From Lytechinus pictus (Eukaryota): a stretch of 60,000 nt of DNA. The stretch spans positions 39,682,001 to 39,742,000 of the forward strand of contig NC_087251.1 of NCBI RefSeq assembly GCF_037042905.1. The letters run 5' to 3'. Numbering within the stretch: position 1 is the stretch's first letter; every line of letters starts with the position of its first letter. This document shows positions 3,851 to 56,218 of this stretch, piece by piece. Below the pieces are notes generated by a model that had not been told where the DNA came from, ran no database searches, and saw only the letters and a program-made list of their open reading frames with translations. The position numbers were made by a program, and so were the translations under genes.

Positions 3851-5020
3851 TTCTATTTGTTTTGCATGATTTCATTCTATCATGTCATGGTGGTAAATGT
3901 GTTTTCAAACTTCCCAGCTCAAATGCAAATTTGAATTTGAGCTCAACTTGTGCCAGCATCTTATATTTCCTCTACATATTGTACTTCTTTTGTTTTTGTA
4001 ACCTGGTTTCTTTTTTGATATGGCATTTAAAAAAAAGGGGGAACAAATATTGTATTTTGGGTGCACGCTTTGCATTAAATTGTGAAGGAAAATTAAGGAA
4101 TTTCATCAAAATTCTATACTTGGGAATTCAGAAAAAAATATCGCAATTCTGTAGTGCAAATATTATGACTCATGATTTGCTCTGGGTGAAATCTTAATAG
4201 TTTTGCATATGGTTATTCATTTTCTCTATCGCCCTTTATTGCATATAAAGATAACTCCTTTTTAGTTAGATGTCTGCATTAGGGTGTTGAACTAAAGAGT
4301 TGTGTTGTACATGTACTTCATATTTTGTATTTTATATAGTTTAAATTTTAATGTATTTGCTGCCATTGAAAAGTGTACGCAATTCAACCATTTGCCTGCC
4401 ACTTTCACTCTCCAGTCAATTAAGTTCAATTCCATTCAACTCATTGCCTTTCATGTATCTAATGGAATTGAATTAAACATAGTAATAATGGCATTAACAT
4501 GTACATGGCTCTGTGTTAACTACTCAGTTGTGATATTAAATGTAATCTAAACTGATGTTGAAAGCATAGAGGATAATCTACGTGGGGGAACTTAAGTCCC
4601 CTCCTGAATAATAGATACAAGAATATGAATGGATTATTGATTTGTCTTGCTGTAATGTGGATAGTGTAGTCTATTAAGTCTTTAAAAGAGACAGAGAAAA
4701 TGTTCGATTGATATTTGTGTTCTAGTCAAGGTTGTCTGAATTGTACCTTTAGAAAATAAATCAAATAATCAAAACCCCTTGCAATTTACAGAATTTCAAG
4801 GACAAACAATTCTTTTTGTAAAGAAAGGGCAGTTTGGCAATGGTAGAGCAATGTTCCTTTTTCTAGGATACTCGAGTTCAAACCAAGCTTATGTGCTCAA
4901 GTTTTGCTCATGTTTTTTTTTTTTAAGGCTGTGATTTTCCTTACCATACTCACTGAAAATGCTGTTTACATCAGGTTGCGACTAATTGTGACTTCTATGA
5001 ATGCCCTTAGCTCTACGTAT

Positions 5021-5175
5021 TGATGGTGGTGATGATGATGATGTTGATGATGATGATGATGATGATGATGATGTTGATGATGATGATAGTGATGATAATG
5101 ATTATGATGGTGATGATGATGATGATGATGATGAATGATAATAATGATAAGGTTGATAATGATAATGATAGTGAT
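5021..5175. repeat. (GAT)n microsatellite
   Basis: Directly visible trinucleotide run. Confidence 0.95.
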
Positions 5176-6308
5176 AGTTTATAGCTCCATGATTTAACAA
5201 TGCTTGAACCCATATTTCTGCATACAGGGTAGTCTAGTTCTAGACGATATTAAACGAATTTGTTTTCACCGATATATACGTTCTATTCCGTGCGTACGCC
5301 CCGCCGAGTGTGCGCGCAAAACCGAGAACCTGTACTCCGAGAAAAATATCGTCTAGAACAGTTGCTCAGCGGTGACGTCATAGGTCAAAGGTCAACGGAC
5401 GAGTGCTCATGAATATGCATGAGTTACTTGTCAATCTCGCTGCGCCGAACCGTTGTTTACGTTTTGCACTCGTTATTTGCATACATTGTGCACGTGGGAT
5501 TGATGTAGTATATCTATGCAGGGACGTGAGCGTCCGTGATCTATGTGATGTAAATACATGTACATGTATCATACGACAGTTTGAGATAGTTCATTACTTT
5601 TAAGGCTACAAATAGAAATTTCATTGTTGGGAAATTACTGTTACATGCATAATAGTTATTTCACTCTATGTGCATATCTTGGTTAAATCTGTGGGTATGA
5701 TGTTACCATCATGATATATGAAAGAATGTGCTAATGTACCAAATTTCAAACTTCAAAACAATACAGACTATAGTTTTTCCACTTTACTCAGATGGAATAA
5801 TTAATGTACATGTTTGAATAATATATTTTGTATTCTTCTTCATCTACACATGTAATTACATAAAGGCATTTTGTCTTAGTATGGGTATTGAAAATTCAGA
5901 CTCATACATGTAATTAAACTCTCATTCTTGTGAATGGATCACATCACGGTACATTTTACTGTGGGCACTTGTAAATATATCATTTTCAAAGTCTTCTTCA
6001 CATATTTCACTGTCAAAGACATGGGTGTCGATCAGGGGGGGGGGATGGGGGATATATCCCCCCCTAATATTTCAAGTGGGGGATGGCCTGTATTATCATC
6101 CCCCCCAATAATTTAGGGTAGAAAAATTATAATAATGATGATGAAAAATGAAAAAGTATGATCATGATAATTATAGTGATGATTATAGTATGCCATCAAT
6201 TAATCAGTTTGTTTCCGTCGCAATGTGTGTATATTGTTATTAAATAAAAACATTATTTTCCAGGACTTTAAAACAGATGGGTGGAGGTTCAAGATGACAA
6301 AACTTTAA

Positions 6309-6733
6309 GGCCCGAATTCACAAAGGTGGTTTTGAAAACCCACGGTTGAGTCCATGGTTTATGCAGATTTCGTGTATAAATTACGCTTATTTTACCGCGT
6401 ATGATGAAAAATGTCGAATGCTGATGCGCGCTTTTGCCACAGTGCGCCAAATTGATGCCTGTTGCCGTGGTTATCCACGCTGTTTTATTAATGAGTCAAC
6501 TGTTTTGAATAATGAGTCCACTCTTCAAACAGTGGACTCATGAATAAAATAGCGTATCTAACTATGGTAACAGGCGTCAATTTGGCGCACTGTGACATAA
6601 GCGCGCATCAGCATTGGACATATTTTTTACACGCGCCCGATACGCGGTAAAATAAGCGTAATTTATACAGGAAATCTGCATAAACCATGGACTCAACCGT
6701 GGGTTTTCAAAACTACCTTTGTGAATTCGGGCC
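6309..6733. mobile_element. Palindromic PIF/Harbinger-type MITE
   Basis: GGCCCGAATTCACAAAGG...CCTTTGTGAATTCGGGCC, near-complete hairpin, TAA TSD on both sides. Confidence 0.9.
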
Positions 6734-7864
6734 TAAATGTTTATGTAAGTTTTAACACATGACATAAAAGGACCCCGACGAACTAAAAACAACTTTTGTT
6801 GATAGGGTGTTCTATCCCACCAGGTAGTGGTGAATAAATACATTTTAATAAATCAATTAATTCAAAAGGGTGGAAAAATAAACGGGTGGAAAAATAAACG
6901 GGAGTAAAAGGGTGGCAAGATAAACAGGGAAAACCCCATGGACGTAAATCCCAGAGGGGTAAATTTTGAAAAAGTACAAATAACTTTTCTCAGATTTACC
7001 CCTCCCACATCCAAGTGCATGATGTTTGTTCCATTTAATCTACAACCCTTTTGAATATCACTTCCTTTTTGTTATGTAAAATAAGTAAATCGCCAGGGAT
7101 CGCCGCTCATAAAAAGTTATTTGCAATGAGGTCTGACATGAGGCGAAAGATTTTCGGACATTATTGAGACTACCTGAAATAGATGTTGTTCTATTTCACC
7201 CTTTTTCTTATTCATTCCCAGAAAATTCAGAGAAAAAGAAAAATACCTTTGCGTTTCTATAGAGTATAGGCTTATCACTTCATTTATTTGCCTGGTTATA
7301 CACACTTTACCGATGTATGTCATGTTAGTTATATATTAAGTTCGGCATTCAGTAAACCTTTGAACAAGAAAATATACCAAAAGCAAGATGTGCACAAAAC
7401 GAAAGTCACCCCTACTTGTATATCCAAATACCTTGACTTGAACCATGGACCTAGTAGGTCCATGCTTGAACGATAACTTTTGGTCAATAATATTTTGCAG
7501 GAGAGCATCGATGTCCTCATTATCTATCTATGTGGAAATGAGGTGCCTATAGTCATGAAAGAGTGAGCCCACATCAAATGCAAAAATTTCACTTTAAAAA
7601 AGTCATAATATATAGTCGTTTGGTGATCAGTATGGAACGCGGAAAGGCTAAAATTTGATCACTGTCACTTTTGATTTGATGGACCTCCGTACCAGCCATC
7701 ATCAAATCAAGTGCAGCCATCAGTAAATCAAAAGTGGCCATCATCATATCAATTTTCAGCATCATATCCCTCTGTACCAGCCATCATCAAATCAGTTTCT
7801 AACATCAAATCAATGTTGTCCTTTCGGCGTTCCTGATGTGCGCGCCAAAAGGACACCTGTAAGT

Positions 7865-9355
7865 TGATGGCAGCCACTTTTTATTTGATGACGGTTACTT
7901 TTGACTTGATGACGGCCACTTTTTATTTGATGACGGTTACTTTTGACTTGATGACGGCCACTTTTTACTTGCTTTTTATTTGATGACGGTTACTTTTGAC
8001 TTCATGACGGCCACTTTTGACTTGATGGCGGCTGCTTTTGATTCGATGATGGCTGCTTTTGATTTGATGATGGCTGCTTTTGATTCGATAGTGGCCACTT
8101 TTGATTTGATGATGGCTGCTTCTGATTTGATGATGGTTGCTTTTGATTCGATAGTGGCCACTTTTGAACTGATGATGGCCACTTTAGATTTGATGATGGT
8201 CACTTTCAATTTTTTTATCGCTTTTCATTTGATGGTCACTTTTTGTTTGATGATCACTTTTTATTTGATCACTTAATTTGATGGTCACTTTTTATTTGAT
8301 GGTCACTTTTTGTTTGATGGTCACTTTTTATTTGATCACTTAATTTGATGGTCACTTTTTATTTGATGGTCACTTTTTATTTGATGGTCACTTTTCATTT
8401 GATGGTCACTTTTCATTTGATGGTCGCTTTTAATTTGATGGGCACCTTTTATTTGATGATCACTTATTTGATGGTCACTTTTAATTTGATGGTCACTTTT
8501 AATTTGATGGTCACTTTTAATTTGATCATCAATTCTTATTTGATGGTCACTTTTAATTTGATCATCACTTTTTATCTGATCATCACTTCTTTGACAGTCA
8601 CTTTTTATTTGATGGTCACTTTTTATTTGATGCTCACTTTTCATTTGATGCTCACTTTTTATTTGATGGTCGCTTTTTATTTGATGGTCACTTTTTATTT
8701 GATGGTCACTTTTAATTTGATGGTCACTTTTTTGTTGGTCACTTTTTATTTGATGGTCACTTTTTATTTGTTGGTCACTTTTTATTTGATGGTCACTTTT
8801 TATTTGATGGTTACTTTATATTTGATGCTCATTTTTTATTTGATGATCACTTTTTATTAGATGATCACTTTTTATTTGATCATCACTTCTTTGACGGTCA
8901 CTTTTTATTTGATGGTCACTTTTTATTTGATGCTAACTTTTTATTTGATGATCACTTTTTATTAGATGATCACTTTTTATTTGATCATCACTTCTTTGAC
9001 GGTCACTTTTTATTTGATGGTCACTTTTTATTTGATGCTAACTTTTTATTTGATGCTCACTTTTAATTTGATGGTCGCTTTTTATTTGATGGTTATTTTT
9101 TATTTGATGGCTACTTTAAATTTGATGATCACTTTTTATTTGATGGTTACTTTTTATTTGATGCTCACTTTTCATTTTATGCTCATTTTTCATTTGATCG
9201 TCGCTTTTCATTTGATCATCACAATTTAAGTTGATGGTTTCGGCATTCCATACATGGTCGCTTTATATTTGATGGTCGCTTTTCATTTGATCGTCGCTTT
9301 TATTTGATCGGCACTTTTCATTTGGTCGTCGCTTTTCATTTGATCATCACTTTTT
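7865..9355 (+). repeat. Left-arm minisatellite: 21-bp units then 18-bp units (TTTTTATTTGATGGTCAC)
   Basis: Directly visible; source of the repetitive YLMVTF / IKSDHQ pseudo-ORFs. Confidence 0.95.
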
Positions 9356-11135
9356 ACAGTACGTGCGCATAAACGTGTCGCAGTGAGCATGCACTGAGCA
9401 AATCCTCATGTACCAGGCCCCCGAAGCTCCGCCATTTTGTCGGAGACATTTGGGCAAATCCTAAGCCCCCATTTGCATATGCATGAATAATTCATCAGTT
9501 CGCTGCTCCACACATCCCAATAGACTCTTTATATGACAAAGCAGAAAGTGGAGATCAGCGTCACGCATGCGCATTGAGCGAGGTCAACTTTGCGTTAATT
9601 ATTCATGAAATTTAATATATTCATCACGTGATTAATCTACTTCTTACTACTATTGACCAATCAGCGTTCTTCACTACAATGAGTCATCATGCATGCATCG
9701 TTTTTCAATCCGTGCATAGAATGCAGTTTACATGCAACGTACACTAGCACCGCAGCCTGACACTTTTCTTAATCTTGTTTAACCTGGAGATGGGGGAGGG
9801 GGGGGGGGTGAATCAGCCTGTTTTTATCTTCTTTTTAACATCGGTGTAAATGAAAGGGGAAGATATTTACGAACTAGTTTATATCACAATAACAATACGC
9901 CAATATAAATAATAACAATGTATTTCAGTTTGAACGTTTCACTTACTGGTTTTGTAATTTGGTTCTTTCATCTAAAAAAAAATACGACCTTTCTCTGCTG
10001 TTCTCCAGATCAGAATCACTAGAGGCATGTTTCACATCGCAGTGTAATCGTTAGTAATGATATATAGTAAAAACAAATTCTGAATCCAAAATTTCTTTAG
10101 AAAATAGGATTGGATTTAATTAGAACCTATTTATTTTCTGTAATTAATTAATAGTGTGTTTTTTACGCTAAGCTTTTCCAATTATTGATAATGATCATTT
10201 AATTTTTTTTTTGCAGGGGGGGGGGTAATCTAATTTCTTTGTGTTCACTCTTTTTAACAGCACAGATAAGTGACATGTCATTACCAAACTTCATCAGTTT
10301 CAGGCAGGGCGGATCTAGGATTTTTCCAAAGGGGGGCACATTTTCTCAAGGAAAAATTTGAAAAGCAAAAAAAAGGGGGGTCTTCACTTTCAGAAGGGGG
10401 ACACACTTTACATTACAATTTTTAATTGAGCCTGTCAAATTGGGGGGGGGGCGCACTGATCGGCTTTGCCCCCCCCCCCACACACACACACACACTCTGA
10501 TTGGCCTAATTTTTGTCTTTAAGTCATCTCTATTCATCTTATTCCTCTTCCCCACTCTTTATAAATTGTTTCTCCCTCATTTATCCCCGCCTCCTCTCAA
10601 AATAAATAAAGAATAAAATGGCCCTTTATGGTTTCTCCTTGTGGGTAAATTGTCAATTGGCTCTGTCCACTCTCTTGTGCACCCTATGCCCCTTCACATT
10701 ATTATTATAATATATTATCTATTCTTTTAATCTCTCTTCAGCTCTCTCTTTGCCATATCGCACTCTCATTATTAAACCACACACACAACTCTTTCTCTTA
10801 TATTTTCCACCTCTCAGCTCTTCTCGCAATTCATTAAAAAAAGAAAATACACTGGGTGATTCCAACTTTGGCGTTGGTGTTCGTAGCACAATTTAGTTCT
10901 TCCTTCCTCCAAAACCTAATGTGAGTTTACAAAAATAATCCAAATAACATTAATAGCTCAACATCAAGTGAGATGAATCTATGAATCAATTTGATTGTAA
11001 TTTTGGTGCTGTAATGATGATGTAAAACTTGTAAGACGCCACACCAAAAGTTCAACAGCAAACATGAAATCACCCATGTATCTTTCTCATTAAAAAAAAA
11101 TATATATTTAGAAATTCTCTATCACATCTACATAA

Positions 11136-11351
11136 CAGCCATGGATCAAACATTCTTTAAGGGGGGGGGGGGGGTCTTTTGCCCTCCACCTTAAAGGTCC
11201 TGGTTCTCAAAAGGATTGTTTTCTATTTTATTTTCAAATTTATTCATTTTTTAAAAATATCTTTATATATTATTTGTTATGTTTTTTAATGGGGGTGATT
11301 TTTACAGAGAAAACCTGCAACTACCACCCCTCCAACCTTGATCCATGGCTG
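11136..11351. mobile_element. Small hAT-like MITE in the foldback spacer
   Basis: 14-bp perfect TIR CAGCCATGGATCAA / TTGATCCATGGCTG; possible 5-bp TSD CATAA / CAAAA. Confidence 0.55.
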
Positions 11352-11970
11352 CAAAATGTAGGTCTCATTACTCTTAAATTTATGCTGCTTGTTCACTATT
11401 GCTCGTCCATTAATTCTACTAGTACTTCCAGTGTCTCCTGAAATAACTTGATTCACCTAAACTCTCAGCTAAAAAGAATTATAGAAGACTTGTTAATTCA
11501 GTGACAATGACAAAATTATTATTTCAATTCATTTTATTCCAAATACATAAATCAGGTAACAATTATTTTCCTCTTGAGTTTAAAGATCAAATTTTGATCA
11601 GAACTCGTTCCCATCTGAAAGAGACTACTGTCCTCACAAACACAGATGCAATGTCACATGCCCCCCCCCCCCCCGAATTCATTGATCATTATTTTTGTTA
11701 AACATTCTTCATTGCCAAAATTGTTACACAATTTCATGTACATATTGTATTGCTGAATTTTTATTTATCATTCCTGTTATGTCATTGTAATAAATTTATT
11801 ATTCTAAGTATTATTATTATAAACATTATCATTATCTACATCCATAATTGTAAAAACTACTGCTACAATCAGCAAGTATAATTACCCCTAAAATAACCGT
11901 ATCCCTCTTAAATTGTTTATGGGTTTTGTTTGGTCAGTAGTGTGGGGGGGGGGCGGTTACAACACTCTAT

Positions 11971-13165
11971 TGTAAATACATGCAGTAATTCAGTTTGATA
12001 TAGGATGTTTGGCATATTGTCAATGCATTATTCCCTAATTCTTCCTCCAGAAAATTATTATTGGAATTAAAAAGCAAACCCTTAATTTGGTCTTGTATTT
12101 CTTGAGTCTCTAAAACAGAGGATGTGAAGCAGAGTCATGTTCCATATCTGTTGAAAAAAAAAAAACGACAGAAATGTTAGCAATTCAATCAAGCCATCAT
12201 AAAAAAATTAAAAAAATTAAAAAATATGTATAAAAGTTTAATGAAACCACAAGCCGAATGAGTCACCTTTACAAAATCTGGTGTGGATTGAAGAATTCAT
12301 GAGTGGGTAGGAAGCAAATAAGTTGATTACATATGATTTTCCACTTGCTTAGCCTAGTATATTCTGATTTTCTTATTTAATTTTGACAAGCTAGATCTAC
12401 CGGTAGGTGATATTAATTGTCCCCTGAAAACATGACAGGTGAAAATTAAAATGGAGCCTGTCAATACGACTCCAGCCTAGTCTCTGAGCTGATTTTATTT
12501 TCATTTAGTCAATACAACTTATATCTTGGTCTACCATGTGAGCCCCCCCCCCCCCAAAAAAAAAAAGGACACCTCACAAAACCCCAATTTAATGTAAAAA
12601 TATGTCATGAACACATAATAATTATATAACACTAGAATCAGTATATTCTCCCAAATAATTTGATACCATATTCATATTTAGATAGTCAGTATGTATTTTT
12701 TGCAGAGATGTAGATTTTGATTTGCACCGAAATAAGGCATGGCTAAAATTAATGACTCCAGATGCCAATGATGCCAAAATCTATGAGTTAGCAAATTTTC
12801 AAAGAAATTGATTTGTGTATTGACACTAAAAAGAGTTATTATCTTGTAAATTATTGAACATGGGTATTGAAATTTGAAATGGATTTTAATATAACGCTTT
12901 TAGGACAATGAAATCATTGACATCTGGACTCATTTTTGGATAAAGTCATTTGGTCTGTAAATACATGAAGTCATTCAGTTTGATAGATAGGATGATTATT
13001 GTTTTTTTTTTACCTTTATGAATCAGGAGGGTCCTGCAGCTTAATTCGGTCTTGTAATCCTCGAGTCTCTAAAAGAGGATGTGAAGCAGCATCATGTTCT
13101 ATGTCTGTTGAATAGAACATACACACAGACAGAAATGTCAGCAATACAAGCTATTGTAAAAAAAA
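11971..13165. repeat. Diverged direct repeat (~11971-12200 vs ~12956-13165) in the foldback spacer
   Basis: Shared TGTAAATACATG.AGT.ATTCAGTTTGATA and GAGTCTCTAAAA..GAGGATGTGAAGCAG...CTGTTGAA...GACAGAAATGT blocks. Confidence 0.75.
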
Positions 13166-14847
13166 ATTAAAACACATAACACTTGGACTATAGCGTATAT
13201 ATCTAGATCTAATCACAGACTCTGGCGTACATAGATCTGGAACTAAATGTAAGTAGATCTAGATCTACATCAAAAGTAGATTTAAATTTCATTTTTGTTA
13301 AACCTACCATTCTGCGAAATTTCAATGTTATTGAATCATATTATCATACAAGTGTTAGATCTAAACTAAAGCTGTCTTGACCCAGGGTTTTTTTAATGGT
13401 TTCATGACATTTGCTCTGACGACAAATGCCCCGATGAAAAATCTACACGTTAGGCCAAACAAAAGCTAACCTCCAATAAATAAATCCTTAACTTAGACCC
13501 TGACTTAGTGACTGAAATAATACTAGGCCTAGCCCTAGGGCTAGGCCTATATAGATTATACAGGAGGTCGCTTTGTTGTAGCCTTGTAGGCCTAAGTAAG
13601 TTTAGTCTAGGTCTATAAACCTAAGCTAGAGAATAGATAGGATAAGAGGTAGAAAAGTTTTCTTTTAGCTTTAGCCAAGACCTGTAGGCCCTACTACTGT
13701 AGGCCTATTATTAACTTTCAAGTTTAGAAAAATAAAAATAAAACATGAAAAGAACTATAAATAAGTTTGGACTTTGCCTTTGGGAAATGAAACATCTTTA
13801 TAAAATTAAAAAATCAAGCATGTGAATTCAAAGAAGGGAACGGGTTAATGGAGTGAATGTCTTTCTATAGAGTCAATATGGATGCGCGATAGATCCCAGA
13901 CAACGTCTAGCCTAAACGTTAAAGGGACTATATCTAGTTCTTTCCTAACCCAGGGGTTGTTGTTGTTGTTCGGCACGCGGGCCGGAGCCCCGTGGGTTAG
14001 TTCTTTCCATGCGCTTATGCCTGCCGAGATCTCGGTAGGCGTCGAAATTTCAGAGAAATTAACTCTCGCCCAAAAGTCTGGCGTGATAATTAATACGAGG
14101 TCTCAAATGGTAGCAGATGGAGATTTACATGTAATCTAGCCTACATTTTTAGCTCACGACGATGGAAATAGTTTTGAGTTTTCGCAAGTCGTTTGCTTCC
14201 TAATTATTCACTTTTTATAAACACAAATTAATTCATGTTGTACCCAGACTTCTCAAGATCCATATAACATTAGATCTTTTGATTTATTTTTGTAAATGAA
14301 TTAAAATTCAGCGTTAATCTGACAGTACTCACCGAAAATCTTTCAAGGATATAATCTTCTTCTGTGTGGGTGACGTCATCTTTCAGCCTTTAATTAAGCG
14401 GAAGTGACGATGGGGTCAAATTATGACGTACGAATTTCAATAGAAAAATACATTATTCATAAGGTAAGGTCCAATCAAATCACAGTATCTTGCGAGTACG
14501 AAAAGAAAAAATAAATGATTCATTAGCAATATGCAAATGGGGCTTAGGATTCGGTTCAAATGTCTCCCAGGGGGTGTGGCCGAAAGTGGTAAAAAATACG
14601 CTTATCACCATGGAGCTTCTATGGAGTATCTGTACGTTATATGCAAATGTTATTTAAATGAGGCTTTTCCGCGGGTGCTACCTTTCAGTCTATACGTATT
14701 TATTTGTCTATGGTTCGAAGTGTACACAGCATATACATATGGTAGCACATCGAGCAGCACGCGCGCGTTCAACTGATACCAAGCTGCGCTATTTTATCCA
14801 TGGATCTGCTCAGTGCTCACTGCGACACGTTTATGCGCACGTACTCT

Positions 14848-16290
14848 GAAAAGCGACGACCAAATGAAAAGTGACGATCAAATAAAAAGCGACGATCAAA
14901 TGAAAAGTGACCATCAAATATAAATCGACCATGTATGGAATGCCGAAACCATCAACTGAAATTGTGATGATCAAATGAAAAGCGATGATCAAATGTACAG
15001 TGACCATCAAAGAAGAAGTGACGATCAAATAAAAAGTGTCCATCAAATAAAAAGTGAGCATCAAATAAAAAGTAACCATCAAATAAAAAATGAGCATCAA
15101 ATAAAAAGTGACCATCAAATAAAAAGCGACCATCAAGTAAAAATTGACCATCAAATAAAAAGTGACCATCAAATAAAAATCGATCATCAAATTAAAAGTG
15201 AGCATCAAATGAAAAATGAGCATAAAATGAAAAGTGAGCATCAAATAAAAAGTGACCATCAAATAAAAAGTGACCGTCAAAGAAGTGATGATCAGATAAA
15301 AAGTGATGATCAAATAAAAAGTGACCATCAAATTAAAAGTGACCATCAAATAAAAAGTGACCATCAAATAAAAATCGATCATCAAATTAAAAGTGAGCAT
15401 CAAATGAAAAATGAGCATAAAATGAAAAGTTAGCATCAAATAAAAAGTGACCATCAAATAAAAAGTGACCGTCAAAGAAGTGATGATCAGATAAAAAGTG
15501 ATGATCAAATAAAAAGTGACCATCAAATTAAAAGTGACCATCAAATAAAAAGTGAGCAACAAAAAAGCGACCATCAAATTAAAAGTGACCATCAAATAAA
15601 AACTGAGCATCAAATTAAAAATGACCATCAAATAAAAAGTGACCATCAAATTTAAAGTGACCATCAAATAAAAAGTGACCATTAAATAAAAAGCGACCAT
15701 CAAATTAAAAGTGACCATCAAATAAAAATTGATGATCAAATTAAAAGTGACCATCAAATTAAAAGTGACCATCAAATTAAAAGTGACCATCAAATAAGTG
15801 ATCATCAAATAAAAGGTGCCCATCAAATTAAAAGCGACCATCAAATGAAAAGTGACCATCAAATGAAAAGTGACCATCAAATAAAAAGTGACCATCAAAT
15901 AAAAAGTGACCATCAAATTAAGTGATCAAATAAAAAGTGACCATCAAACAAAAAGTGACCATCAAATGAAAAGCGATAAATAAATTGAAAGTGACCATCA
16001 TCAAATCTAAAGTGGCCATCATCAGTTCAAAAGTGGCCACTATCGAATCAAAAGCAACCATCATCAAATCAGAAGCAGCCATCATCAAATCAAAAGTGGC
16101 CACTATCGAATCAAAAGCAGCCATCATCAAATCAAAAGCAGCCATCATCGAATCAAAAGCAGCCGCCATCAAGTCAAAAGTGGCCGTCATGAAGTCAAAA
16201 GTAACCGTCATCAAATAAAGAGCAAGTAAAAAGTGGCCGTCATCAAGTCAAAAGTAACCGTCATCAAATAAAAAGTGGCTGCCATCAACT
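14848..16290 (-). repeat. Right-arm minisatellite, reverse complement of the left-arm array
   Basis: GTGACCATCAAATAAAAA 18-mers, then 21-mers; ORF 15918..16214(-) nearly identical to 7980..8276(+). Confidence 0.95.
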
Positions 16291-17870
16291 TACAGGTGTC
16301 CTTTTGGCGCGCACATCAGGAACGCCGAAAGGACAACATTGATTTGATGTTAGAAACTGATTTGATGATGGCTGGTACAGAGGGATATGATGCTGAAAAT
16401 TGATATGATGATGGCCACTTTTGATTTACTGATGGCTGCACTTGATTTGATGATGGCTGGTACGGAGGTCCATCAAATCAAAAGTGACAGTGATCAAATT
16501 TTAGCCTTTCCGCGTTCCATAGATCAGTAGCTCATATATGGTGCCTTTGTTGTATGCGGTTGGATGTAATTGATATTAAAACATTTTATCATGTGACCCC
16601 ATCAGATACCTCTCATGAAAATATTGAGGTTCAGTGAGCTCAATATAATATGATCATATTTTTACAAATGTTTTAATAAGTGAAATCAATTGATGGTTTC
16701 AGAAAGAATAATCATTCATTCTCTCTAAAGCGGATATGAGGATATGAACATCGGATGTTTTTTTTTTCATGTTATTCTTGTTATTGTTATGGACTTGAAT
16801 AACTAAACTTGATTATTTTTTTCTTATTTTGGCAAAAAGAAATATCTTTTGAGTTTGGAAAAGGATGGCAGTTTTACATTCTATATGAGCACACTCATGC
16901 GGTACGTAAATTTCATTGTAACACATAATGTATATTAGCTGATATTACACACTGATCATGCTGATGGTTCAAGAAAATGTTGGAGAAATATCATGACATG
17001 ACAGTTGAGTTTTGATTGTTTTAATGTTTGTTTTTGTTTCATGCACTTATAAAGTATTTAAAACATGTTAAAATCCAGGGTTAAAATCGTCTAAGGAATG
17101 ACGGTAAGCCCGATGGCACACGAGAAGCCACACAGTTTGTAATTTGTGCTAATCTTATATTTTTTGTCCGAATGTGCATTTTATCATCATGCATTAAGAA
17201 GAAAAAAGATATTGCCAGTCGGGTTAGATTTAAGAGAGAAGTTGTATACATTATGCTCAATAAACATATCACTTTGTACATGGTCCAGACATTTTTTGTC
17301 ATTTTTCTTTCGTATGGGTTTATAATAAGCTTACTTGTAACACAAATTGAATTAAAAAAAAAATTATATAAGTAAAGTACACTGCAACAATTAAGCAATT
17401 TCCAAGAACACCATGCATATCAACCACTCTCAAATGTCCTAACTTGTGATTTTAGTGGGGGTAATGTTGAAAGATCCCCATCCACAAGAACATTTGTGTC
17501 AATCACCCCCCCCCCAACCAAGAATACCGATCGACACCCATGGGCAGAGAGTATGACAAAAAGGGTTGAGAAGTACATGTACTTTGTACAGATTAGTACA
17601 GAGCTGTGAAAGGGATAAGGAAAACAGAATAAAAATCATTATTGATTTTTAAAAGTAGATTAATCTCACAAATGCGGATTTTGATGCGTGCATCAGATTT
17701 TGGAAGAAAATCTTTGCAATTGTCCTTGGAACTTTTAGTTTATTTATTTACTTTACATGGACATATAGATAATGCGTACAATTATTTTTTGTTGTTCAGC
17801 TACATTATTATCTAGCTACAGGTAGCCAGGAAATGATATTGCCAATGATGTACACGAAGCCTCTTCGATA

Positions 17871-18694
17871 AAGACCCTGACCGGTGTAAAAACAATCATA
17901 TATTAAAATAAAGGTAATGATTCTTCCAATAGTTAAAAATATTAAATAAAAATCAAAGAAACTACTCCTCCAAAGTACGCTTCGATTGAGCACCCCCATG
18001 TCGCCTGGAAATGATGACGTCACGTTGTGTCAGGAGGGTTGTGATTCTGTAGGTTTGTGTACAAAATCATTCGGTATTTTCTTCCATTTCCATGTTATGA
18101 ATCCATTTTTTTTTCGTTTTCAGATGAAAATGGCACTCAAAATTATTCACTGTTCAAATTGTTGTAAACCTACAACTATTCACTACCTTTTTTGTGATTT
18201 CTTTGTTTGGCTCTTATTGGGCCTAAATTGCTATGTCAGGAAAAGTTATTATACATAATCTAAATGCAGATAGAATTGAAATTTGCGCCAAGTAAGCAGG
18301 AAATAAATATGGCAAAAACTAGTTCAAAACTGTAGATTTCATAATTTCAAGCTTGTGGGTAAAAATATATGTGATATCCCTCTGTGATAGAAGTGAAGAG
18401 AATGAAATGCGTTATCTGGAAAGCAAAAAAATCACCCTGTTTTTCTGTGTACAAACCTATGGAATCACAACGCTTCTTACACAACGTGACGTCACGGTCT
18501 CGAGGCAGGTGAAAAGCACAATAAAGCCTATTTTCTAAGCGGGGTTCGAAGGCCGATAATTGGAATATTCTTAAGCAAATTACTCAGCTGGGAAGCGGTG
18601 AAAATTAATATAGCATACCTTGCTGTATTTAGTAGCTTATAAGCTTTCGATTGGTATATAATTTATAAATTTCATTTCGGGTCCGGTCTGGATC
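17871..18694. mobile_element. Degenerate DNA-transposon derivative (possibly Kolobok-like)
   Basis: Weak terminal symmetry AGACCCTGACCGG / CCGGTCTGGATCT; two internal TGACGTCAC motifs; TSD not intact. Confidence 0.3.
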
Positions 18695-18867
18695 TATAAA
18701 TAAACTTGAAGGCACATTTTCTCATTACCTTTGAAGTACAGTATTTATGAAATATATTTTTTGCAGCCATTATGAAAGAGCGTTATGTTCAGATCTACAT
18801 GTACCTTGCCAGTTAATTAAATTGCTAGTAACTATTCGTTTGCAGTGTAACTTTTACATGTAGTTTG

Positions 18868-20510
18868 CATAGGCGGATCCAGCTTTTGGCGAAAGGGGGG
18901 GGGGGCACCGCCAAGCGGCGCACATATTTTTGCACCATAAAAGAAAATGTTGAAAAAGGGGTAAAGTCTGACCCTGTCAAATGCTCTTTTCAAAATGTAG
19001 GATTCCCAGTCATGCCATTTTGCATGACCACACGCAGATAATATTTCCGGGGGGGGGGGGGGGGGGCAAAACTCGAACATATTTTTGAAAAATAAAAATA
19101 AAAACGATAGAGTAAACGGACCGAGCTGCTCATGCGGCGATTATTTTTTTTATAAAGTGTAATAAAAGTATTTGGTACACATCTCACATTTGCACATTTT
19201 TCATAGTTTTCATGAAATGTTAAGGGAAAAAATGTGTTTTCACAACAACTGATCGGGAATTTGCCCCCCCCCCTTCCCCCTTGCTGCGTACGACCATTCC
19301 CTGAAATCCACTTAAACATATATCATTACAACATAAAATATACATGAATTTAGACATATAATCTTTCTTAGACATATATAGAGAGAGATTGAAAAACTTA
19401 TTAAAGAAAGAAACAAGCAAAAAGTAACACAAATTATGCATGTTATGTGCGATTTCAAAATCTCGTGTCCCACTTGTGTATATTAATTGAGATGCAATTT
19501 TTTTTACTATATATACACAGGGGCGTCGATCCTTTTTTTCACATTGGGGGGGGGGGGGGCAAAATCATAAATCAACTTTCCAACGGCGCTCGATCACGCA
19601 AAACAAACAAACTCACACACACTCGTATATATATATATATATATATATATAGCTGAAATTTTTTAGTAAACTGACCTGAAAATAGGAAAAAGGTGCCTTT
19701 TAAAGACTGTTTGTAGTAACTCATGAGGAGAATACATATCTCACTACACAGATAATGCGAGTGCCGAGGGCGAGCTGAAATTTCTTTATATTCTGACCAG
19801 AAAGCTTGATATCCTCTGCATTTTGGTACCTATGATTAAGATGGGTATCTAAAAAAGAAAAAACATGCGAGCGCAAAGCGCGAGCTTAAAATTTCGATCT
19901 GACAAAAAAATGACAGTTTAATGGACGTTTTTAATAAAGAACAAGATTATATCCAACAAAAGATTATTGCAAATCGAAGCGGGACTTCTTTTGAGGTTTA
20001 GAACTGAGAACGGGACATTCTATTCACCTATTTAATCATGAAAAGTATGGGGTTTTGCTACAGAAATGGTGCGAGCGCGAAGCGCGTGCTGAAAATTTTT
20101 GTATTCCAATCTGAAAAGCGGACAATTTGAGCACGATTTTAAACAAAGAACGAGTCGTGTAGCTCAATATCGCTTGCTGATTTCTGTGTAACATTACCAT
20201 CTTATTTTATTTTTGTACATGCGGAATTATTGGAGGAGGGGGGGGGGGCAAAACGATATGTTTGCCCCCCCCCCCCCCAATTATTTCTATTGGTGGGGCG
20301 AAGGACTATCTTGGCCCCCTGACGAGCTTGAAAAAAAAGCCTTTTTTGCCCCCTGACGAGCTTGAAGACCTTTTTTTTGTTTTGCTTGTCAATTTTTTTT
20401 CCAGGTACGAAGTCCTTTATTTGTGATTGAAGACTTTTTTTTTGCTTGTCAATTTTTTTGGCGGACGGTTTTGCCCCCCCCCCCTGTGGAAAATTCCAGG
20501 TACGCCACTG
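18868..20510. mobile_element. Cluster of hAT-like non-autonomous fragments
   Basis: Several end-like motifs (CATAGGCGGATCC, CAGGGGCGTCGATCC, GGTACGCCACTG) with poly-G/poly-C subtermini and GCGAGCGCGAAGCGCG-type repeats; ends could not be paired. Confidence 0.45.
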
Positions 20511-20578
20511 TTTAAAGTGCTATACTGTACGTACAAATATGACCGACTTGTGAGTTTTGTTTTGGTCATGGTTCTTTA

Positions 20579-21750
20579 GGATTTTTTTGTTCCAGAGAGA
20601 GTTTACTCAGTCAACTTCAATAAATGCAAAAGGGAGACAATTACTGTATTCTTGTTCTACTGCAAATTCCAATTATTGTTTGGTCAGCCATATTATGAAA
20701 GAACAGTACATTTCAGATCAAACTTGCCAGTTAAAGGACAAGTCCACCCCAACAAACTGACTTGAATAGATAAAGAAAAATCAAACAAACATAACTCTGA
20801 AAATTTCATCAAAATTGGATGTAAAATAAGAAAGTTATAACAATTTCAAGTTTCGCTTAATTTTTCAAAACAGTTATATGCACATCTTAGTCAGCATGCA
20901 AATGAGGGGACCGATGACATCATTCACTTACTATTTCTTTTGTATTTTATTTTATGAAATATTTTGATTTTCTCGTCATTGTCTGTTAAAAAAGTTTCAT
21001 TCCTCCCTGAACACATGTAATTCCATTATTCTAACATTTTGTGGTTCGAGCAAAGGGGCACTAATATTATCGAATTCGTAAAAATTGAAATATTGTATTA
21101 TTCAAACAAAAACAAAAGAAATAGTGAGTGAGTGACATCATCGTCTCTCTCATTTGCATATCACCGAGTTGAGTATAGAACTGTTTTGTGAAAAATAAGC
21201 CAAATTTTAAAATGTCATAACTCTCTTATTTTACATCCGGTTTTGATGAAATTTTCACCATTATTCATGTTTGATTTGTCTCTATTTATTCAAATAATTT
21301 TTTCTGGGGTGGACTTGACCTTTAATGACTTTGACATTATTTTCCTGCTATATATTACTGTCATGCGAACAAAAGAAGCAATTCTGTGGAACAAGTTTAT
21401 GAGGAAATGTGTAAAATTGTCATTGTCATTTTACATGTGGAAATATAGAATTTCTTGCTTTTTAAGTGACTCCATTTAGGAAACTTGGGGCCATGTGACT
21501 TCAATTAAACTGGCATCATGAAGAAATTACATAATTAACCCAAATCAAGGGGAGTGTCAATTTTGAAGGATATAAAGTTGCTACCCTCTTTCCATATATA
21601 CCCAGTAGGTATATTCAAGAAGACATCGTGGCCTCGGAGGAAACTTTCGAGAGCTTTGTTCTGTTGGATCTTCAAAGTCGTTGTTCCCAACTGTTTGGAC
21701 ATATGCAGGATGGAATCTCTGATAGAATGACGTTAATTACCCGTCGCCAT
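20579..21750 (-). pseudogene. RecQ-like (SF2) helicase N-terminal remnant of the AcademH-like element
   Basis: From ATG 21750: MATGN*RHSIRDSILHMSKQLGTTTLKIQQNKALESFLRGHDVFLNIPTG, then after a 4-bp (TA)2 shift YGK (motif 0 plus Walker A). Decayed motif Ia-like VIVSLLHLL/VD*VNSLWNKKI at ~20579-20650. Confidence 0.8.
20735..21321. mobile_element. Kolobok-type MITE interrupting the helicase remnant
   Basis: TTAA TSD; TIR AGGACAAGTCCACCCC / GGGGTGGACTTGACCT; same family as 40857-41354. Confidence 0.85.
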
Positions 21751-22484
21751 CACACCATATATGAAAAAAACGAAGATATAAGTGATCAAGACTTGTCTGA
21801 TTTGGTAAACACGCAAGAAACTGAATTTGGAAACCGCGCGCTGTATAATTATGTATAGGCCTACAGTACACAATACAACCAGGGAGTTGGGAGTCTCCCT
21901 GATACAACATCACGGCAGACGGTACAGTACACAAGTCTATGGCTAATGTTGTGCTGCTTTGTGCGATCCGATTGATTATGTGTGTGTGTGTATTGTATAT
22001 GTAATCTATATACGATAGTCTACGCTCAAAAACCTTATTGTAGGTATCAGGGGAAACATACACGATCCGATTCATTTATGATGTTTTTGTGTGTTTAATT
22101 TGATTTCTTTTATAAATTATTTACAACAAAAAGTCCTTTCTTAGGTAATTAATATTCATTTTATCGGTAGATCACACCATATTTCTCAACCCAGTAATCT
22201 TCCCTGCTGTTAACAAAGACTAGCGGCTGAACGGGAGGCGTGTCCACTTTTAACGACTTTCCCTCAAAAATCTGAGGGAGTGACGTCACCGCTGAGCAAC
22301 TGTTCTAGACGATATTTTTCTCGGAGTACAGGTTTTCGGTTTTGCGCGCACACTCGGCTGGGCGTACGCACGGAATAGAACGTATATATCGGTGAAAACA
22401 AATTCGTTTAATATCGTCTAGAACTAGACTACATACAGGGAAGCATTGTCACGAAGTGCTTTGTCCATGACCTTCTCCAACTAA

Positions 22485-22928
22485 GACACCGTTCTCATTA
22501 CTGTCCTAAAACTAGGCTACTGGAAACTAGTTTAATGTGTGATGAGAACGGTCAAAGTGGTCTTGGAAGCGATCTTCCAAACCGGTTCAGAAAACCACCT
22601 CACGATGTAGTTTTGAAGATCGCTTTGCCTTGTTTAACTGGTTTTAGCGTGAGGACACGACCGTTCTTCGGGAAGCGATCTTCGCACATTTCGAGCGCGC
22701 TACTCCACAAACTGAATGTGGAATGCCTACGCTGCGGTTTCAAATTTCATGTGAAACATGTCACCTCTCTGAGAGTGTTCCCATAGCAACAAGATCGCTT
22801 TACGGGAAGTGATTTTTAAAACCTCTTTCGGGTGATCAAATGGGAACGCTAGCAAAGCGATCTTTCAAACTGGTTTCCTACCAGGTTTCCAGTAAACCAG
22901 TTTTAGAAAGTATAATGAGAACAGTGTC
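22485..22928. mobile_element. Harbinger-like MITE inserted in a smaller MITE
   Basis: TIR GACACCGTTCTCATTA / TAATGAGAACAGTGTC, flanks TAA / TAT; host MITE family (AGCCAATCAGA..CAAGGATTTCAGTAGCTT) recurs near 27850, 30620, 33016 and 42960. Confidence 0.75.
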
Positions 22929-24252
22929 TATTTTGCTCTCTCAGCCAATCACATTCAAGAATTTCCAGTAGCTTATAACATTTGTCAGTTAAAATCACCG
23001 TCTATTTGCTTCGTGAAACACCCCCCTGATCTCTCTCACTCTTTAGAATTTTGCTGAAATGAACGATTTGCTTGCAAGGATGAGCAACATCCATTCTACA
23101 TCTCAGTCGGTTTCTTTGTTGGGATTAGTCATATCGTATGAGAACACACCCATGCTTCATACGCACCGAAATTGCAGAACTTCAAGACATTATTTGCTGT
23201 CATAAAATTCTTCAGGTTGTCCTGCAATTTATTTCTTGTGGTTATTTGGTTTAATTTTGTTAATATTTGAAATATCATCAAAAAGGTTGTGCAATATGGA
23301 AGAAATCAAATTCACTTGAAATGTCACATTGATGGTGGTGTGGATAAAAGAGGGAATTACTTGTAATGCTCAGCTATGTTTTGCCTGAATTGAATAAATT
23401 CATCAGATTGCTGGACCAGAGATTATATATTTGAATGGTATAAGTTTGGAGAAAAAAGACAGATCTATTCCATATTCATCATTGCATATTATCACAAGTA
23501 TTAGAAGTCTTGAAAAATCTTTTCAAATGAGGCAGTTGTTGAAAAGGGAATTCTTGCTAAATCAAGTTATTTACGTCATTTAAGAAAAGGATTCAGCCTT
23601 ATCACTGTGATTAGTCCGTAAATCTTTTGTTAATTAAAAAATCAAGTTTTACTGATTGCAAGTGATATATTGTTTGTATGGAATAAAGCTTTTGACTTAT
23701 TAACTTGTTGCTATATAAAAAGTGATTTCAAAGGGTAAAAAGTATTTTTGCATAGGTATCTAGAGAACAACTGAGACAAACATGTAAAATATTAAATTTC
23801 CCCAAAAAAGTATTATCTCTTTTTTATGAGCATAGAATTCCCTGAAAAATCTTTGATCTCCATACATTTATGAGTAGTATATTTCAGTTGGTCACCTTTA
23901 CGAGAGCAGTGTCACCGTTTCCAATGAGCAAACACTAATACATTTTAGATTCATAGACTTTGGTTTTGTGATCATATTCTGTATACTTATCCAACCTTCA
24001 AGGCACTGAATTCATTGATAGTATGAAAGGATATAATTTCAGGTGATTCATTCTTCGTTTGTATTAATACCCGGAAGAAAATTCAAGAAACAAACCCGGC
24101 TTGTGTGATCTTTTCTTTTATTGGTGTGAAAAGGTATTCTAGTATAACATTTGCCATCTATAGTTTCCTGTGATTCGTGCAAATCTTGAAATTCGCCTTT
24201 AAGTCTGAGTTGAGAATGCAGGGATTCTTCTAGGGCAGCTGGGGTTGAAATG

Positions 24253-24655
24253 GTTTTTGTCTCCCCAGTCCGCCGTCCGTCCGTCACAAACATTATGACA
24301 CATAACTCTGCAAGCGTAAGTCATTTTTTAACCAAACTTGGATGGTAGATGTACTTAGGGGGCCTGCTTGTTATGCTGCAGTCAGAGGTCACATGTTAAG
24401 GTCGAAGGTCATTTTCAGGTCAACGTTAAAGTTTACATGGAAGATTCTATTATGACACATAACTCTGCAACTGTAAGTCACTTTTCAACAAATCTTGGAT
24501 GGTAGATGTACTTAGGGGACCTGCATGTTATGCTGCAGTCAGAGGTCACATGGTAAGGTCAAAGGTAATTTTAAGGTCAACGTTAAAGTTTACATGCAAG
24601 ACTCTCTTATGACACATAACTTTGCAACCGTACGTCACTTTCAAATCAAACTTGG
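24253..24655 (+). mobile_element. Truncated Helentron/HINE-like element with ~157-bp tandem units
   Basis: TTTTTGTCTC start, (CGTC)n microsatellite, ~2.3 copies of a unit shared with 44009-44360. Confidence 0.65.
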
Positions 24656-40856: not shown

Positions 40857-41354
40857 AGGTCAAGTCCACCCGAGATAAAAGTTGATTTGAATAAAAAGGA
40901 AAAAAAAATCAAAGAAGCATAACACTGGAAATTTCATCAAAATCGAATGTGAAATAAGAAAAATATTGCATTTTAAAGTTTCACTTATTTTTCACAAAAC
41001 AGTTATATGCACAACTCGGTGATATGCAAATGAGAGACTTGATGATGTGCCTCGCTCACTATTTCTTTTGTTTTTTACTGTTTGAATTATATAATAAGTC
41101 AATTTTTACAGATTTTTTAACAAGGACCCTCTTGTTTCAACCACAAAATGTAATGAAATAAAAACAGAAATAGTGAGTGTCGTCAGTTTCCTCATTTGCA
41201 TACTGACCAGGATGTGAATATAAGTATTTTGTGAAATTAAACAAAACTTCAAATGCCTGTAATTTATAGTTTACTTCCGATTTTGATGAAATTTTCAGTG
41301 TTATGCTTTCTCTTTTTTATTCAAACCGACTTTTTGTTGGGGTGGATTTGTCCT
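40857..41354. mobile_element. Kolobok-type MITE
   Basis: TTAA TSD; AGGTCAAGTCCACCC / GGGTGGATTTGTCCT. Confidence 0.85.
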
Positions 41355-41748: not shown

Positions 41749-43442
41749 CCCTTCTAGAGTGTCTGAATTATTAGGAAACCCTAGACCGTGCTGTGCTATG
41801 TAGTATGTGTGATTAATACTACGGTCACACCAACGAAACTGATTCCAAACCGACCGACGGCATGTCATCGGAAATAACAAAGTAACTTTGGTCGGTCCGG
41901 GAATCGTTTCATCAACATTTTCTTGTCTGATAAAGTTGTATCTGACAACCTTTCTTGATTTTGATTGGCTGAGAAGCACTGTTCTACTACTCTAACTGTC
42001 GGATTAAACAGAAATAGGCGGATAAAATATCTGTTGATGAAACATTCCTCTGGTGTTGCTTTCACGGTCGTGACTAGCTGATTTCAAGTACGGTGTTGAC
42101 CTTTTGGTGTTGGTGTCAGGTCAATTATTACAGGATTATAACACCAAACGTAAAATGAAGATGGTCCCGAAAAGTCACTCACTAGTTGTTGAGATGTCAA
42201 TAATGTGATCTGGATCAGTTTTACAAACTCTGAATAAGTTTTGGAGCTAAGGGAAGCAATCCAAATTTCAACACCAAGGCCAAGGCCAACACCGGACTTG
42301 AAATCACCCAATGTGGCAAATCTCTGATGCTCCTGTTACACCCACGAAGCCAACTCCAAGCAGACCAACGGTATATCACCGGAAATAGCGTAATAGCTTT
42401 GGTCTCTCTGGATTTGGTTTCGCCGATGCGACTGTGGCCTAAGTTCTGAATTTGCAAGCTCTATTGATGGAGCACTTGAATTACAAAACAAGGAAAGCAC
42501 CAGCTAGGTAGCAAGGGATGAGATACTGACTCCCTGTTGATACCTTCAGGGGGTTGGAGGTGGAGAAGGAAGGGACTCCCCCCCCCCCCCCTTGATGGAG
42601 TAGTTGTAGCAGTAGCATCAATCTTCATTATTAAACACAGTTGTGATAAGAGCATAATTACTGCCTCTCTTTTCCTTTTCTCTTGATGAAAGAGTTAAAT
42701 CTATCCGTATTTATACCTTTGGGGTATACTGTGACTAAAAATGCAGCCCCTCCCTCTTCTCCACCATGTTGCTTACACCGGTGCTTTTATTTTGCATCAC
42801 ATCTCAGGAACCCTGTCTATTGCCAATCAGTTTATCGCTGTGGTCACGTTTCTGTGGGTTTGGGGGGGGGGTTGAGCTGTATGAAAATAACAGCATTTCA
42901 TCTCATAACAACTTTGATGATATCTTGTTGTGCACTTCAAAGATATATCAATTTTCTAGTGCGTGTTTCATGGAGCATCTTTTCAGTGATTTTCACTCAA
43001 AAATTTCACCTGAGCCAATCAGAGGCAGGGATTTCAGTAGCTTATTTGGTGAAAAATCATTCTGTGTTTCATGAAATTCTCCTCTGTTTGTCTGATTCTG
43101 GCTTGCCAGAACAGCTGGACATTTCTAACTCCCTCTGTAGTATTCCAAGAAGGCACTATGATGCTCAGTTGCTCACAACGTGTGTTAACAGTGGAGCATT
43201 GCATGAAACTCTGGATCAAATGCAAATCAGTTTTATGTCCAATCACAAATTTGCAATTGATTGCTGATCTGCTTCCTGTATGAAGGCGTGTACAGTGTAA
43301 ACTGTCAATTGCAAAACTTGCAACAGAAATTTTCTGTTGATTGCAAATGTATTTGTGCGACATCCCCCGAAGGCTTCCAAAGACATTTCTGTTTCTCGCC
43401 CTGGATACTCTTCTACATGTCTTTTTCTCTCTCCCTTTCCAG

Positions 43443-52193: not shown

Positions 52194-53064
52194 TTATATG
52201 CCCGTCCTATGGGAAGTATTATGGTATCACGCTCGGTGTCCTTCCGTTCGTCTCTCCATTAACTTTTCCTTGTAAACGCGATAAGGTCAGTTTAACTTAA
52301 CCTAAGCTCATATAACTTGGTGTGTATGATACTAGCATGGATCCCAGGGAGCCTATTGATTTTGGGGTCAAAGGTCAAGGTCACAGTGACATCTTTTCAT
52401 CTTACCCTTCTGCAGTCCTTGTAAGCATAACTACAGTTTAACTTAACCTACACTCATAGTATTTGGTGGTGTATGATACTAGCCTGGATTCAGGAAGCCT
52501 ATCAGTTATGAGATCAAAAGGTCAAAGTCACACTGACATGTTTTCATTTTACCTTTTCTGCAGTCCTTGTTAACGCAATAACTTCAGTTGAACTTAATCT
52601 AGGCTCATGTTATTTGGTGTGTATGATACTAGCATGAATCCCAGCAAGAGTATTGTTTTTGAGGTCAAAGGTCAAGGTCACATTGACATGTTTTCATCTT
52701 GCCCTTCTGCAGTCCTTGTAAACGCGATAACTTCAGTTTAACTTAATCTCGGCTCATGTTATTTGGTGTGTATGATACTAGCATGAATCCCAGCAAGCGT
52801 ATTGATTTTGAGGTCAAAGGTCAAGGTCACACTGACATGTTTTCATTTTACCCTTCTGCAGTCCTTGTAAATGGGATAACTTCAGTTTAACTTAATCTAG
52901 GCTCATATAATTTGGTGTATATGATACTAGCATAGATCTCAGGAATTCTATTGATTTTGAGGTCAGAAGGTCAAGTCGCCACCTTCCACTTTTCTTGCTT
53001 GACCAATAACTATATTCTGTGTTAGAGGCGGGCGTATTATGTGCTCGCCTTAGCGACACTCTTG
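52194..53064 (+). mobile_element. Helentron-associated element with ~5 tandem copies of a ~150-bp unit
   Basis: SubTIR TATATGCCCGTC / GGCGGGCGTATTA, 3' hairpin GTGCTCGCCTTAGCGACAC, CTTG|TT end; TATGATACTAGC recurs about every 150 bp. Confidence 0.8.
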
Positions 53065-55625: not shown

Positions 55626-56218
55626 AGGGATGGTCCAGGCTGGAGATATTTTATCTTAATAAATAGAGTAAAATTCACAGAGCAAAATGCTGGAAATTTC
55701 ATCAAAATCGGATAACAATAACGAAGTTATTGGATTTTAAAGATTTGGATTATTCGGGTGAAACAGTTCTAGGCATGTCTTCATGAATATTCATTAGGTG
55801 GGCTGATGATGTCATATCCCCAATTGTTCTTTTGTATTTTATCATATGAAATTAGGTTTATTCAAGAATGTTCTACCAAGAACTAAAACAATTGGATTGA
55901 CAACTGATTTAGTTTTTTATTGCCGCAACTTATTTCATCATAATGGAGACACATCATTCACACATGTATGAAAAATGAAACAATTATCATTTCATGTAAT
56001 AACATAAGAAAAACGAAAGTGGGGGTATGACATCATCAGCCCACCTAATGAATATTCATGACGATGTGCATATAACTGTTTAAAAAAAATATTGATAAAC
56101 TTAAAAATTCAATAAGTTCGTTATTTGTTATCCGATTTTGATGAAATTTTCAGCATTTTGCTCTGTGAATTTTACTCTATTTATTTAGATATAAATATTT
56201 TCAGCCCAGACCATCCCT
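55626..56218. mobile_element. Kolobok-type palindromic MITE
   Basis: TTAA TSD; AGGGATGGTCCAGGCTG / CAGCCCAGACCATCCCT; long internal symmetry. Confidence 0.85.

Follow-up and report, generated by a model that had tools for sequence, protein, structure and literature searches.

The AcademH lineage of Academ DNA transposons, reportedly set out by Kojima in 2020, has terminal inverted repeats (TIRs) that begin with TAG. Elements of the hAT superfamily have short TIRs starting with CA and target site duplications (TSDs) of 8 bp, and the TU foldback elements of Strongylocentrotus show 8-bp TSDs and long modular arms. In PMC10045372, the TSD of AcademH is given as 9 or 10 bp, and the marks of IS3EU/GingerRoot elements are TA..TA termini and a 6-bp TSD. 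Kolobok elements are marked by a TTAA TSD and RR..YY termini in PMC9587614. Transposons that house foreign DNA are also on record. Tol2, a hAT element of medaka, carries the TTAA-flanked palindromic MITE (miniature inverted-repeat transposable element) Angel (10.64898/2026.01.12.699174). In Pack-TIRs, gap filling is the main route to single-copy cases in animals and multicopy cases come about by later transposition (PMC8277862). Here, a nest of transposons at positions 5230–22431 of a 60,000-nucleotide stretch of the Lytechinus pictus genome (NC_087251.1, positions 39,682,001 to 39,742,000; hereafter the window) is compared with these systems. Its outermost shell is of AcademH type and looks younger than several of the elements that it contains. 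That old cargo sits in a young shell, whether the cargo was already on board or was captured during gap repair, is considered likely.

The initial annotation had described a four-level nest, in which the AcademH-like shell contains a hAT-like element (6020–17542), this a foldback (7631–16521), and this in turn a MITE (11136–11351). The geometry is as described; the list of elements is longer, as at least seven more MITE-like inserts were found. The shell itself (5230–22431, 17.2 kb) is flanked by a 9-bp TSD of sequence CATACAGGG, with its left copy at 5221–5229 and its right copy at 22432–22440 (both + strand), which match at 9/9 positions (chance ~7e-6). The left TIR (5230–5380, + strand) starts with TAG and is 151 bp long, and the right TIR (22281–22431, - strand) has the same length and spacing. 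The pair shows two mismatches over 151 bp (98.7% identity), and the outer boundaries of the initial annotation thus hold. The left TIR contains a TGACGTCA motif at its inner end and an internal 15-bp inverted pair whose members are separated by 107 bp. The ends of the shell are equal in length, and beyond position 151 their similarity is not significant (score 26 vs a shuffle mean of 28). After subtraction of the recognised inserts, which total 14 kb, a backbone of ~2.8 kb is left.

The shell has TAG-starting TIRs and, at one end, an inward-pointing helicase. Based on the 9-bp TSD, the RecQ-like stub of this helicase and a layout matching that of its relatives, it is filed as a non-autonomous AcademH-type derivative, and its sequence features do not make it an autonomous member. 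In detail, it shares with AcademH the 9-bp TSD, a RecQ-like helicase pointing inward and TAG TIRs in the range of 100–150 bp, as in the metagenome loci L008, L025 and L030 discussed below. It differs in having no transposase match, only ~45 helicase codons and 14 kb of inserted elements. A search of 5000–23000 against Rfam gave no matches, a Cys-rich open reading frame (ORF) at 5409–5600 had no Atlas match of at least 0.9, and an exact scan of metagenome contigs for 27 TIR letters returned none.

The stub (21598–21750, - strand) belongs to a RecQ-like helicase of superfamily 2 and points inward from the right end. It was detected by phmmer, by hidden Markov model (HMM) windows and by a frameshift-tolerant search. 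A 46-residue frame at 21595–21732 (- strand) matched 13 proteins, 11 of which match PF00270 (DEAD-box), nine of them at or above the gathering score; the best phmmer match is the RecQ-like XP_041453184.1 of L. variegatus (67% over 42 aa). Detectable helicase is confined to 21598–21732 (- strand, ~45 codons, from the Q-motif to Walker A). Following the likely ATG, codon 6 is a stop, and the homology stops just past the Walker A TGY. When longer helicase relatives were used for the HMM search, significance was reached in two overlapping windows out of the 3426 read in six frames, with an iE of 0.61 for the runner-up. Further helicase exons were found neither by HMM search nor by tblastn, and the frameshift-tolerant search gave no other consistent helicase match. 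Three stray scores of 35–43 in that search (z >4, 8 shuffles), against 98–148 for the stub, were judged to be chance, since they came from different queries and strands. A word-based protein search with the stub gave 0/10 candidates, and its single PDB match (E 0.62) was irrelevant. As only the stub matches relatives and the homology ends after TGY, the helicase is, on sequence grounds, truncated rather than decayed along its whole length. The earlier description of a heavily decayed helicase in an old defective element is therefore revised, and the arm that holds the stub is among the least diverged parts of the nest.

Eighty metagenome loci with a matching helicase were collected, and those of at least 3 kb were scanned for ends. 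In L008, a 5′ part of the helicase points inward between identical 103-bp TIRs with TAG termini, and the 9-bp TSD is perfect. L025, L027, L028 and L059, which probably represent one locus, have TAG termini, TIRs of 91–93% identity and no TSD (at best 6/9). Thus, in these relatives the identity of the TIRs tracks the state of the TSD. L030 (1–5791) carries helicase and DUF6589 genes tail to tail, with 189-bp inverted ends at both contig ends, and its sequence is apparently that of a near-complete AcademH-type element; DUF6589 is presumably linked to the Academ DDE transposase. None of seven transposase-side ORFs from L030, L025 and L008 matched the window below E 0.9, as expected of a non-autonomous derivative, and blastn of the nest against the 80 helicase loci gave no matches. 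The TGACGTCA motif lies toward the inner part of the TIRs in the window (5230–5380, 22281–22431), in L008 (1639–1741) and in L025 (1938–2035), and apart from it these TIR sequences are unrelated.

The hAT-like element (6020–17542) is non-autonomous and measures ~2.2 kb without its inserts. Its 14-bp TIRs (CA..TG) are exact and its 8-bp TSD matches at 6/8 positions, that is, with the two differences reported before (chance of 6/8 or better ~0.006). This TSD indicates that 5381–6019 and the sequence from 17551 onward were one original stretch. If the ends at 6020 and 17542, as well as the MITE ends with no TSD, came from different copies of abundant families, the degenerate TSDs would be uninformative on age. 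Terminal motifs of this kind occur often, with a third end like these at 19518, and three inserts are without a TSD. Against this, the 14-bp TIRs are correctly oriented and, apart from the end at 19518, no other such pair exists within the 60 kb at up to two mismatches; the TSD agreement has the low chance given above; and the perfect TSD of the foldback implies that 6737–7630 and 16528–17542 were contiguous before the foldback inserted. A mis-pairing of the ends is thus highly improbable.

The shell and its contents differ in their degree of change. The hAT-like TSD has 2/8 positions altered and the Academ TIRs and TSD 2/160 (Fisher p=0.011, post hoc), and the inclusion of the MITE at 17912 gives p=0.0002 in a comparison likewise chosen after the fact. 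In a run search with 16330–24200, 11 of the 20 runs listed hold part of the sequence, none holds half and the best share is 0.26; small shares of this kind were not taken as evidence. Contigs of four runs (X1, X3, X6 and X11) were compared with the same span. In X1, three contigs over 21298–22385 differ from the Academ arm in 12 of ~946 letters (1.3%) plus 8 gap letters. The interior of the hAT-like element, which is matched by contigs of all four runs, differs from X1 at 39/748 positions (5.2%; p=2e-6 against the Academ arm), and the MITE at 19518 at 12/196. These differences agree with the proposal of the initial annotation that the shell is younger than several of its contents. A change of ~1% would also leave little time for the five or six insertions that the 2.8 kb received, of which four have TSDs that are damaged or missing. 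The interior is connected to the right TIR in X1 record 7 and X11 record 13, which places the helicase arm within the family. The right flank is present in X6 at ~93% identity, and the organism of that run is therefore a close relative with the same locus.

The same figures bear on a simple pile-up, in which an old insertion gathered its inserts singly in place and conversion between the two ends later made its TIRs alike. A decay of 10% could still leave a 9-bp TSD perfect (0/9, with an interval reaching 34%), the arms of the foldback show that identity can be uneven along a TIR (2/800 in the outer part, 79/1066 in the inner), and the 1.3% of X1 could be an allelic difference at the same locus. 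However, the non-TIR part of the arm (21326–22280), which conversion of the ends could not refresh, is also ~99% identical to the X1 contigs, and among the relatives the state of the TSD varies with TIR identity (100% and 9/9 in L008, 91–93% and at best 6/9 in the L025 group). Accumulation in place is consequently judged unlikely.

Sibling copies that share the internal junctions had been proposed as a check of the composite. In X1 record 5, the first 28 letters belong to the right end of the MITE at 20735–21321 (24 TIR letters and TTAA); the record shows two differences overall, and an empty site would mismatch it at 14/24 letters. Since this contig carries the right MITE/Academ junction, the MITE is probably common to a sibling, and probably lies in the Academ arm of another copy too. 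At 17542, no sharing was seen among the contig rows listed. We regard it as quite likely that the MITE at 20735–21321 was on board at the last jump, and the same probably holds for the hAT-like element and for the remaining aged MITEs.

Cargo of this age could also have been acquired in a single step. According to this alternative, a short young AcademH derivative, consisting of TIRs, stub and a built-in Kolobok-type MITE, acquired old and repeat-rich genomic DNA when template switching occurred in the repair of a break, as in the gap-repair route of Pack-TIRs, either here or just before the last jump, and the cargo would be old host DNA and not Academ body. The helicase arm is ~99% identical to X1 contigs and the interior is a mosaic of aged repeats resembling the flanks, the spacer bins track high-copy repeats in X3, X6 and X11 and not the helicase arm, and no remnant of helicase or transposase occurs in the spacers, all of which would be in accordance with capture. 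ACATGT is found in 8 copies in 1.58 kb over five shell spacers, compared with 0.5–1.6 per kb in the flanks, and this richness is common to the spacers 5381–6019, 17551–17911 and 18731–18868. Together with the 6/8 TSD of the hAT-like element, it would push the left breakpoint of a captured segment to within ~640 bp of the left TIR. There is also no parental copy within the window, and the fillers of surveyed Pack-TIRs are <5 kb (PMC8277862). Capture is accordingly held to be rather doubtful. As a separate observation, the shell spacers 18733–18812 and 20638–20730 show a weak direct similarity that ends just before TTAA (score 57 vs a shuffle mean of 33.5), and the MITE at 20735–21321 sits in one of the two.

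The foldback within the hAT-like element (7631–16521) is non-autonomous and has long TIRs, termini TATGG...CCATA (TA..TA) and a 6-bp TSD, GATCAG, which matches at 6/6 positions, as had been claimed. Its arms (7631–9405 and 14802–16521, ~1.75 kb) consist of 21-bp and 18-bp tandem units and enclose a middle of 5.4 kb. Along the alignment of the arms, the outer 800 columns contain two mismatches and the inner 1066 contain 79, a number that tandem slippage also inflates; the inward fall in identity may reflect end-biased homogenisation or slippage of the arrays. In the middle, the longest stop-free stretch is 101 aa, and one such ORF has no Pfam match. By its termini and TSD the foldback fits an IS3EU/GingerRoot-like element, and it differs from that group in having no ORF of transposase length and in its 1.75-kb arms of tandem units. 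With the TU elements it shares long modular arms of tandem units around a heterogeneous middle, and differs from their 8-bp TSDs by its 6-bp one. X11 record 9 has 0/192 differences to the foldback end followed by 338 unlike letters, and may mark either a different insertion site or the foldback's left junction in the window. The perfect TSD, the two mismatches of the outer arms and the identity to X11 argue for the foldback as the last arrival. The age ranges of foldback and shell (0.04–1.2% vs 0.2–4.7%) are statistically inseparable.

A sequence of events for the nest can be proposed from its boundaries, TSD states, stub and contig identities. The shell would be a deletion derivative of AcademH that kept both TIRs and the first ~45 helicase codons and lost the transposase, and it would have moved in trans with enzymes of an autonomous relative. 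Its lineage seems to have held passengers before the last jump, the hAT-like element among them, and a loaded unit of 8.3 kb would then have landed here and produced the 9-bp TSD. The IS3EU-like foldback would have entered the hAT-like passenger afterwards, bringing old MITE relics of its own in its middle. Movement of the whole 17-kb unit is not needed, and ~8.3 kb suffices if the foldback came last. That the shell came with this old cargo of ~8.3 kb and the foldback inserted last is about evenly balanced in our judgement. With a foldback arriving last and a cargo older than its shell, the depth of nesting would not equal the order of insertion.

Several points weigh against a loaded arrival followed by the foldback. 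The perfect TSD is weak when taken alone (9/9, 95% interval 0–34%). Cut-and-paste transposition leaves the TIRs un-reset, so a long-lived loaded lineage would need selection or conversion to retain 98.7% identity; for this reason, and because the foldback arms are uneven (2/800 vs 79/1066), TIR identity is not a clean clock. In X1 the older Kolobok-type MITE at 17912 differs at 19/776 positions, which is not significant against the 12/946 of the Academ arm (p=0.07). X11 record 13 differs from the Academ arm at 16/457 positions plus 22 gap letters, so that this arm does not look equally young against every sample. Distance to a family contig bounds the insertion age from above only. The contig comparison rests on 32 of 120,839 pieces, along with 15 of the 834 joints and 24 loose ends out of 5,442, and its span (16330–24200) omits the left junctions 5230, 6020 and 7631. 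Among the rows listed none spans 17542, 16521/16522 into the hAT-like element, or 22431, and the 28 letters on the MITE side of X1 record 5 are below the 31-letter bar for bridging. Finally, the depth of bins 17645–17907 and 19223–19485 in X3 and X6 exceeds that of the helicase arm by a factor of 100–1000, hinting that other repeats or host DNA make up these spacers, and not Academ backbone.

Contigs show presence only and depth is not copy number; the remaining depths, which are readings of missing cover, were therefore kept out of the evidence. Over the flank 23431–24200 both X1 and X11 show a depth of 0, and over the helicase arm one of 5–7 and 13–14, respectively, which would fit a multicopy family. 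The depth of X1 is only ~2 in bins 17645–17907 and 19223–19485, which would oppose siblings sharing these spacers. In X3 and X6 the helicase arm has a depth of 7–27 against 33–76 on the same flank, which would oppose a fixed insertion in that organism.

The other inserts of the shell are MITE-like. Within the hAT-like element, a palindromic MITE (6309–6733) is flanked by a TAA TSD (3/3), by which rule we take it to be of Harbinger type. In the right part of the shell, a palindromic MITE at 20735–21321 has AG..CT ends and a TTAA TSD (4/4), and an older MITE at 17912–18730 has AG..CT ends and flanks ATAA/TTGA, each one change from TTAA. Their sequences fit the Kolobok type. Further copies of the 20735 family lie at 40857–41354 and 55651–56191 (69–80% identical). 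A hAT-type MITE relic with approximate ends (~18869–19297) has no TSD (best 4/8), and neither has the hAT-type MITE at 19518–20510, flanked by TATATACA and TTTAAAGT, the two ends of which may not be from one element.

The middle of the foldback contains three MITE-like inserts. A truncated hAT-type MITE end (~10303–10480, + strand) has no partner end that could be found, a MITE at 10850–11078 has TA/TA flanks and is 68% identical to a copy at 42079–42314, and the 216-bp MITE at 11136–11351 has exact 14-bp TIRs but no recognisable TSD, as its 8-bp flanks match at 4/8 positions (chance of 4/8 or better 0.14). A diverged direct repeat (11971–12213 vs 12956–13172, 79–90%) is also present in the foldback middle.

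Outside the nest, an old Kolobok-type palindromic element (22484–22929) lies 43 bp beyond the right TSD and is deep in all four runs, and AGGTCA-rich tandem arrays occur at 24292–24655 and 52267–52975, with units of 157 bp and 149 bp. Downstream of the nest, exons of an ASPP-like gene with ankyrin repeats and SH3 extend on the + strand from 30931 to ~50694, and its product is 92% identical to a L. variegatus protein (BLASTP). Residues 1–114 of the long ASPP isoform are not in the window, and the nest therefore probably lies in a long early intron of the gene, which would exceed 30 kb.

A transposon acting as a vehicle for other superfamilies has precedent, by analogy, in Tol2 and Angel. Both cases comprise a DNA transposon with a built-in TTAA-flanked palindromic MITE of another family; Tol2 is autonomous with one passenger, whereas the number of passengers in the non-autonomous shell may be five or more. 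Pack-TIRs and Pack-MULEs similarly have a TIR pair around foreign DNA. Their survey required a unique parental copy and short fillers (<5 kb), in contrast to the repeat mosaic of the shell, for which no parent was identified (PMC8277862). Foldbacks can also bound moving DNA, as in the FB-flanked Ising TE of Drosophila, a composite that moves the enclosed DNA; unlike the foldback described here, it has two separate FB elements as its boundaries and extends over hundreds of kb (PMC6431247). In a literature search from which the AcademH paper itself fell outside, no title was found on Academ elements carrying other transposons, which is no proof that none is in print. The nest is one well-bounded example of a known behaviour.

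In a wider and tentative reading, which we think doubtful, non-autonomous AcademH lineages of sea urchins would be long-lived carriers that gather hAT, Kolobok and Harbinger passengers, keep their 151-bp ends matched and have spread a loaded unit of 8–17 kb to several sites, the IS3EU-like foldback doing likewise with cargo of its own. If so, old repeats would be copied in blocks with no need of their own transposases. If the loaded unit does have siblings, dead MITEs would have been amplified as passengers, which would bias the copy counts of their families and estimates of repeat age, and the usual expectation that hosts are older than the insertions inside them would fail at two levels of this nest. 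Such siblings would also provide a natural estimate of the cargo size that the little-studied Academ machinery can move.

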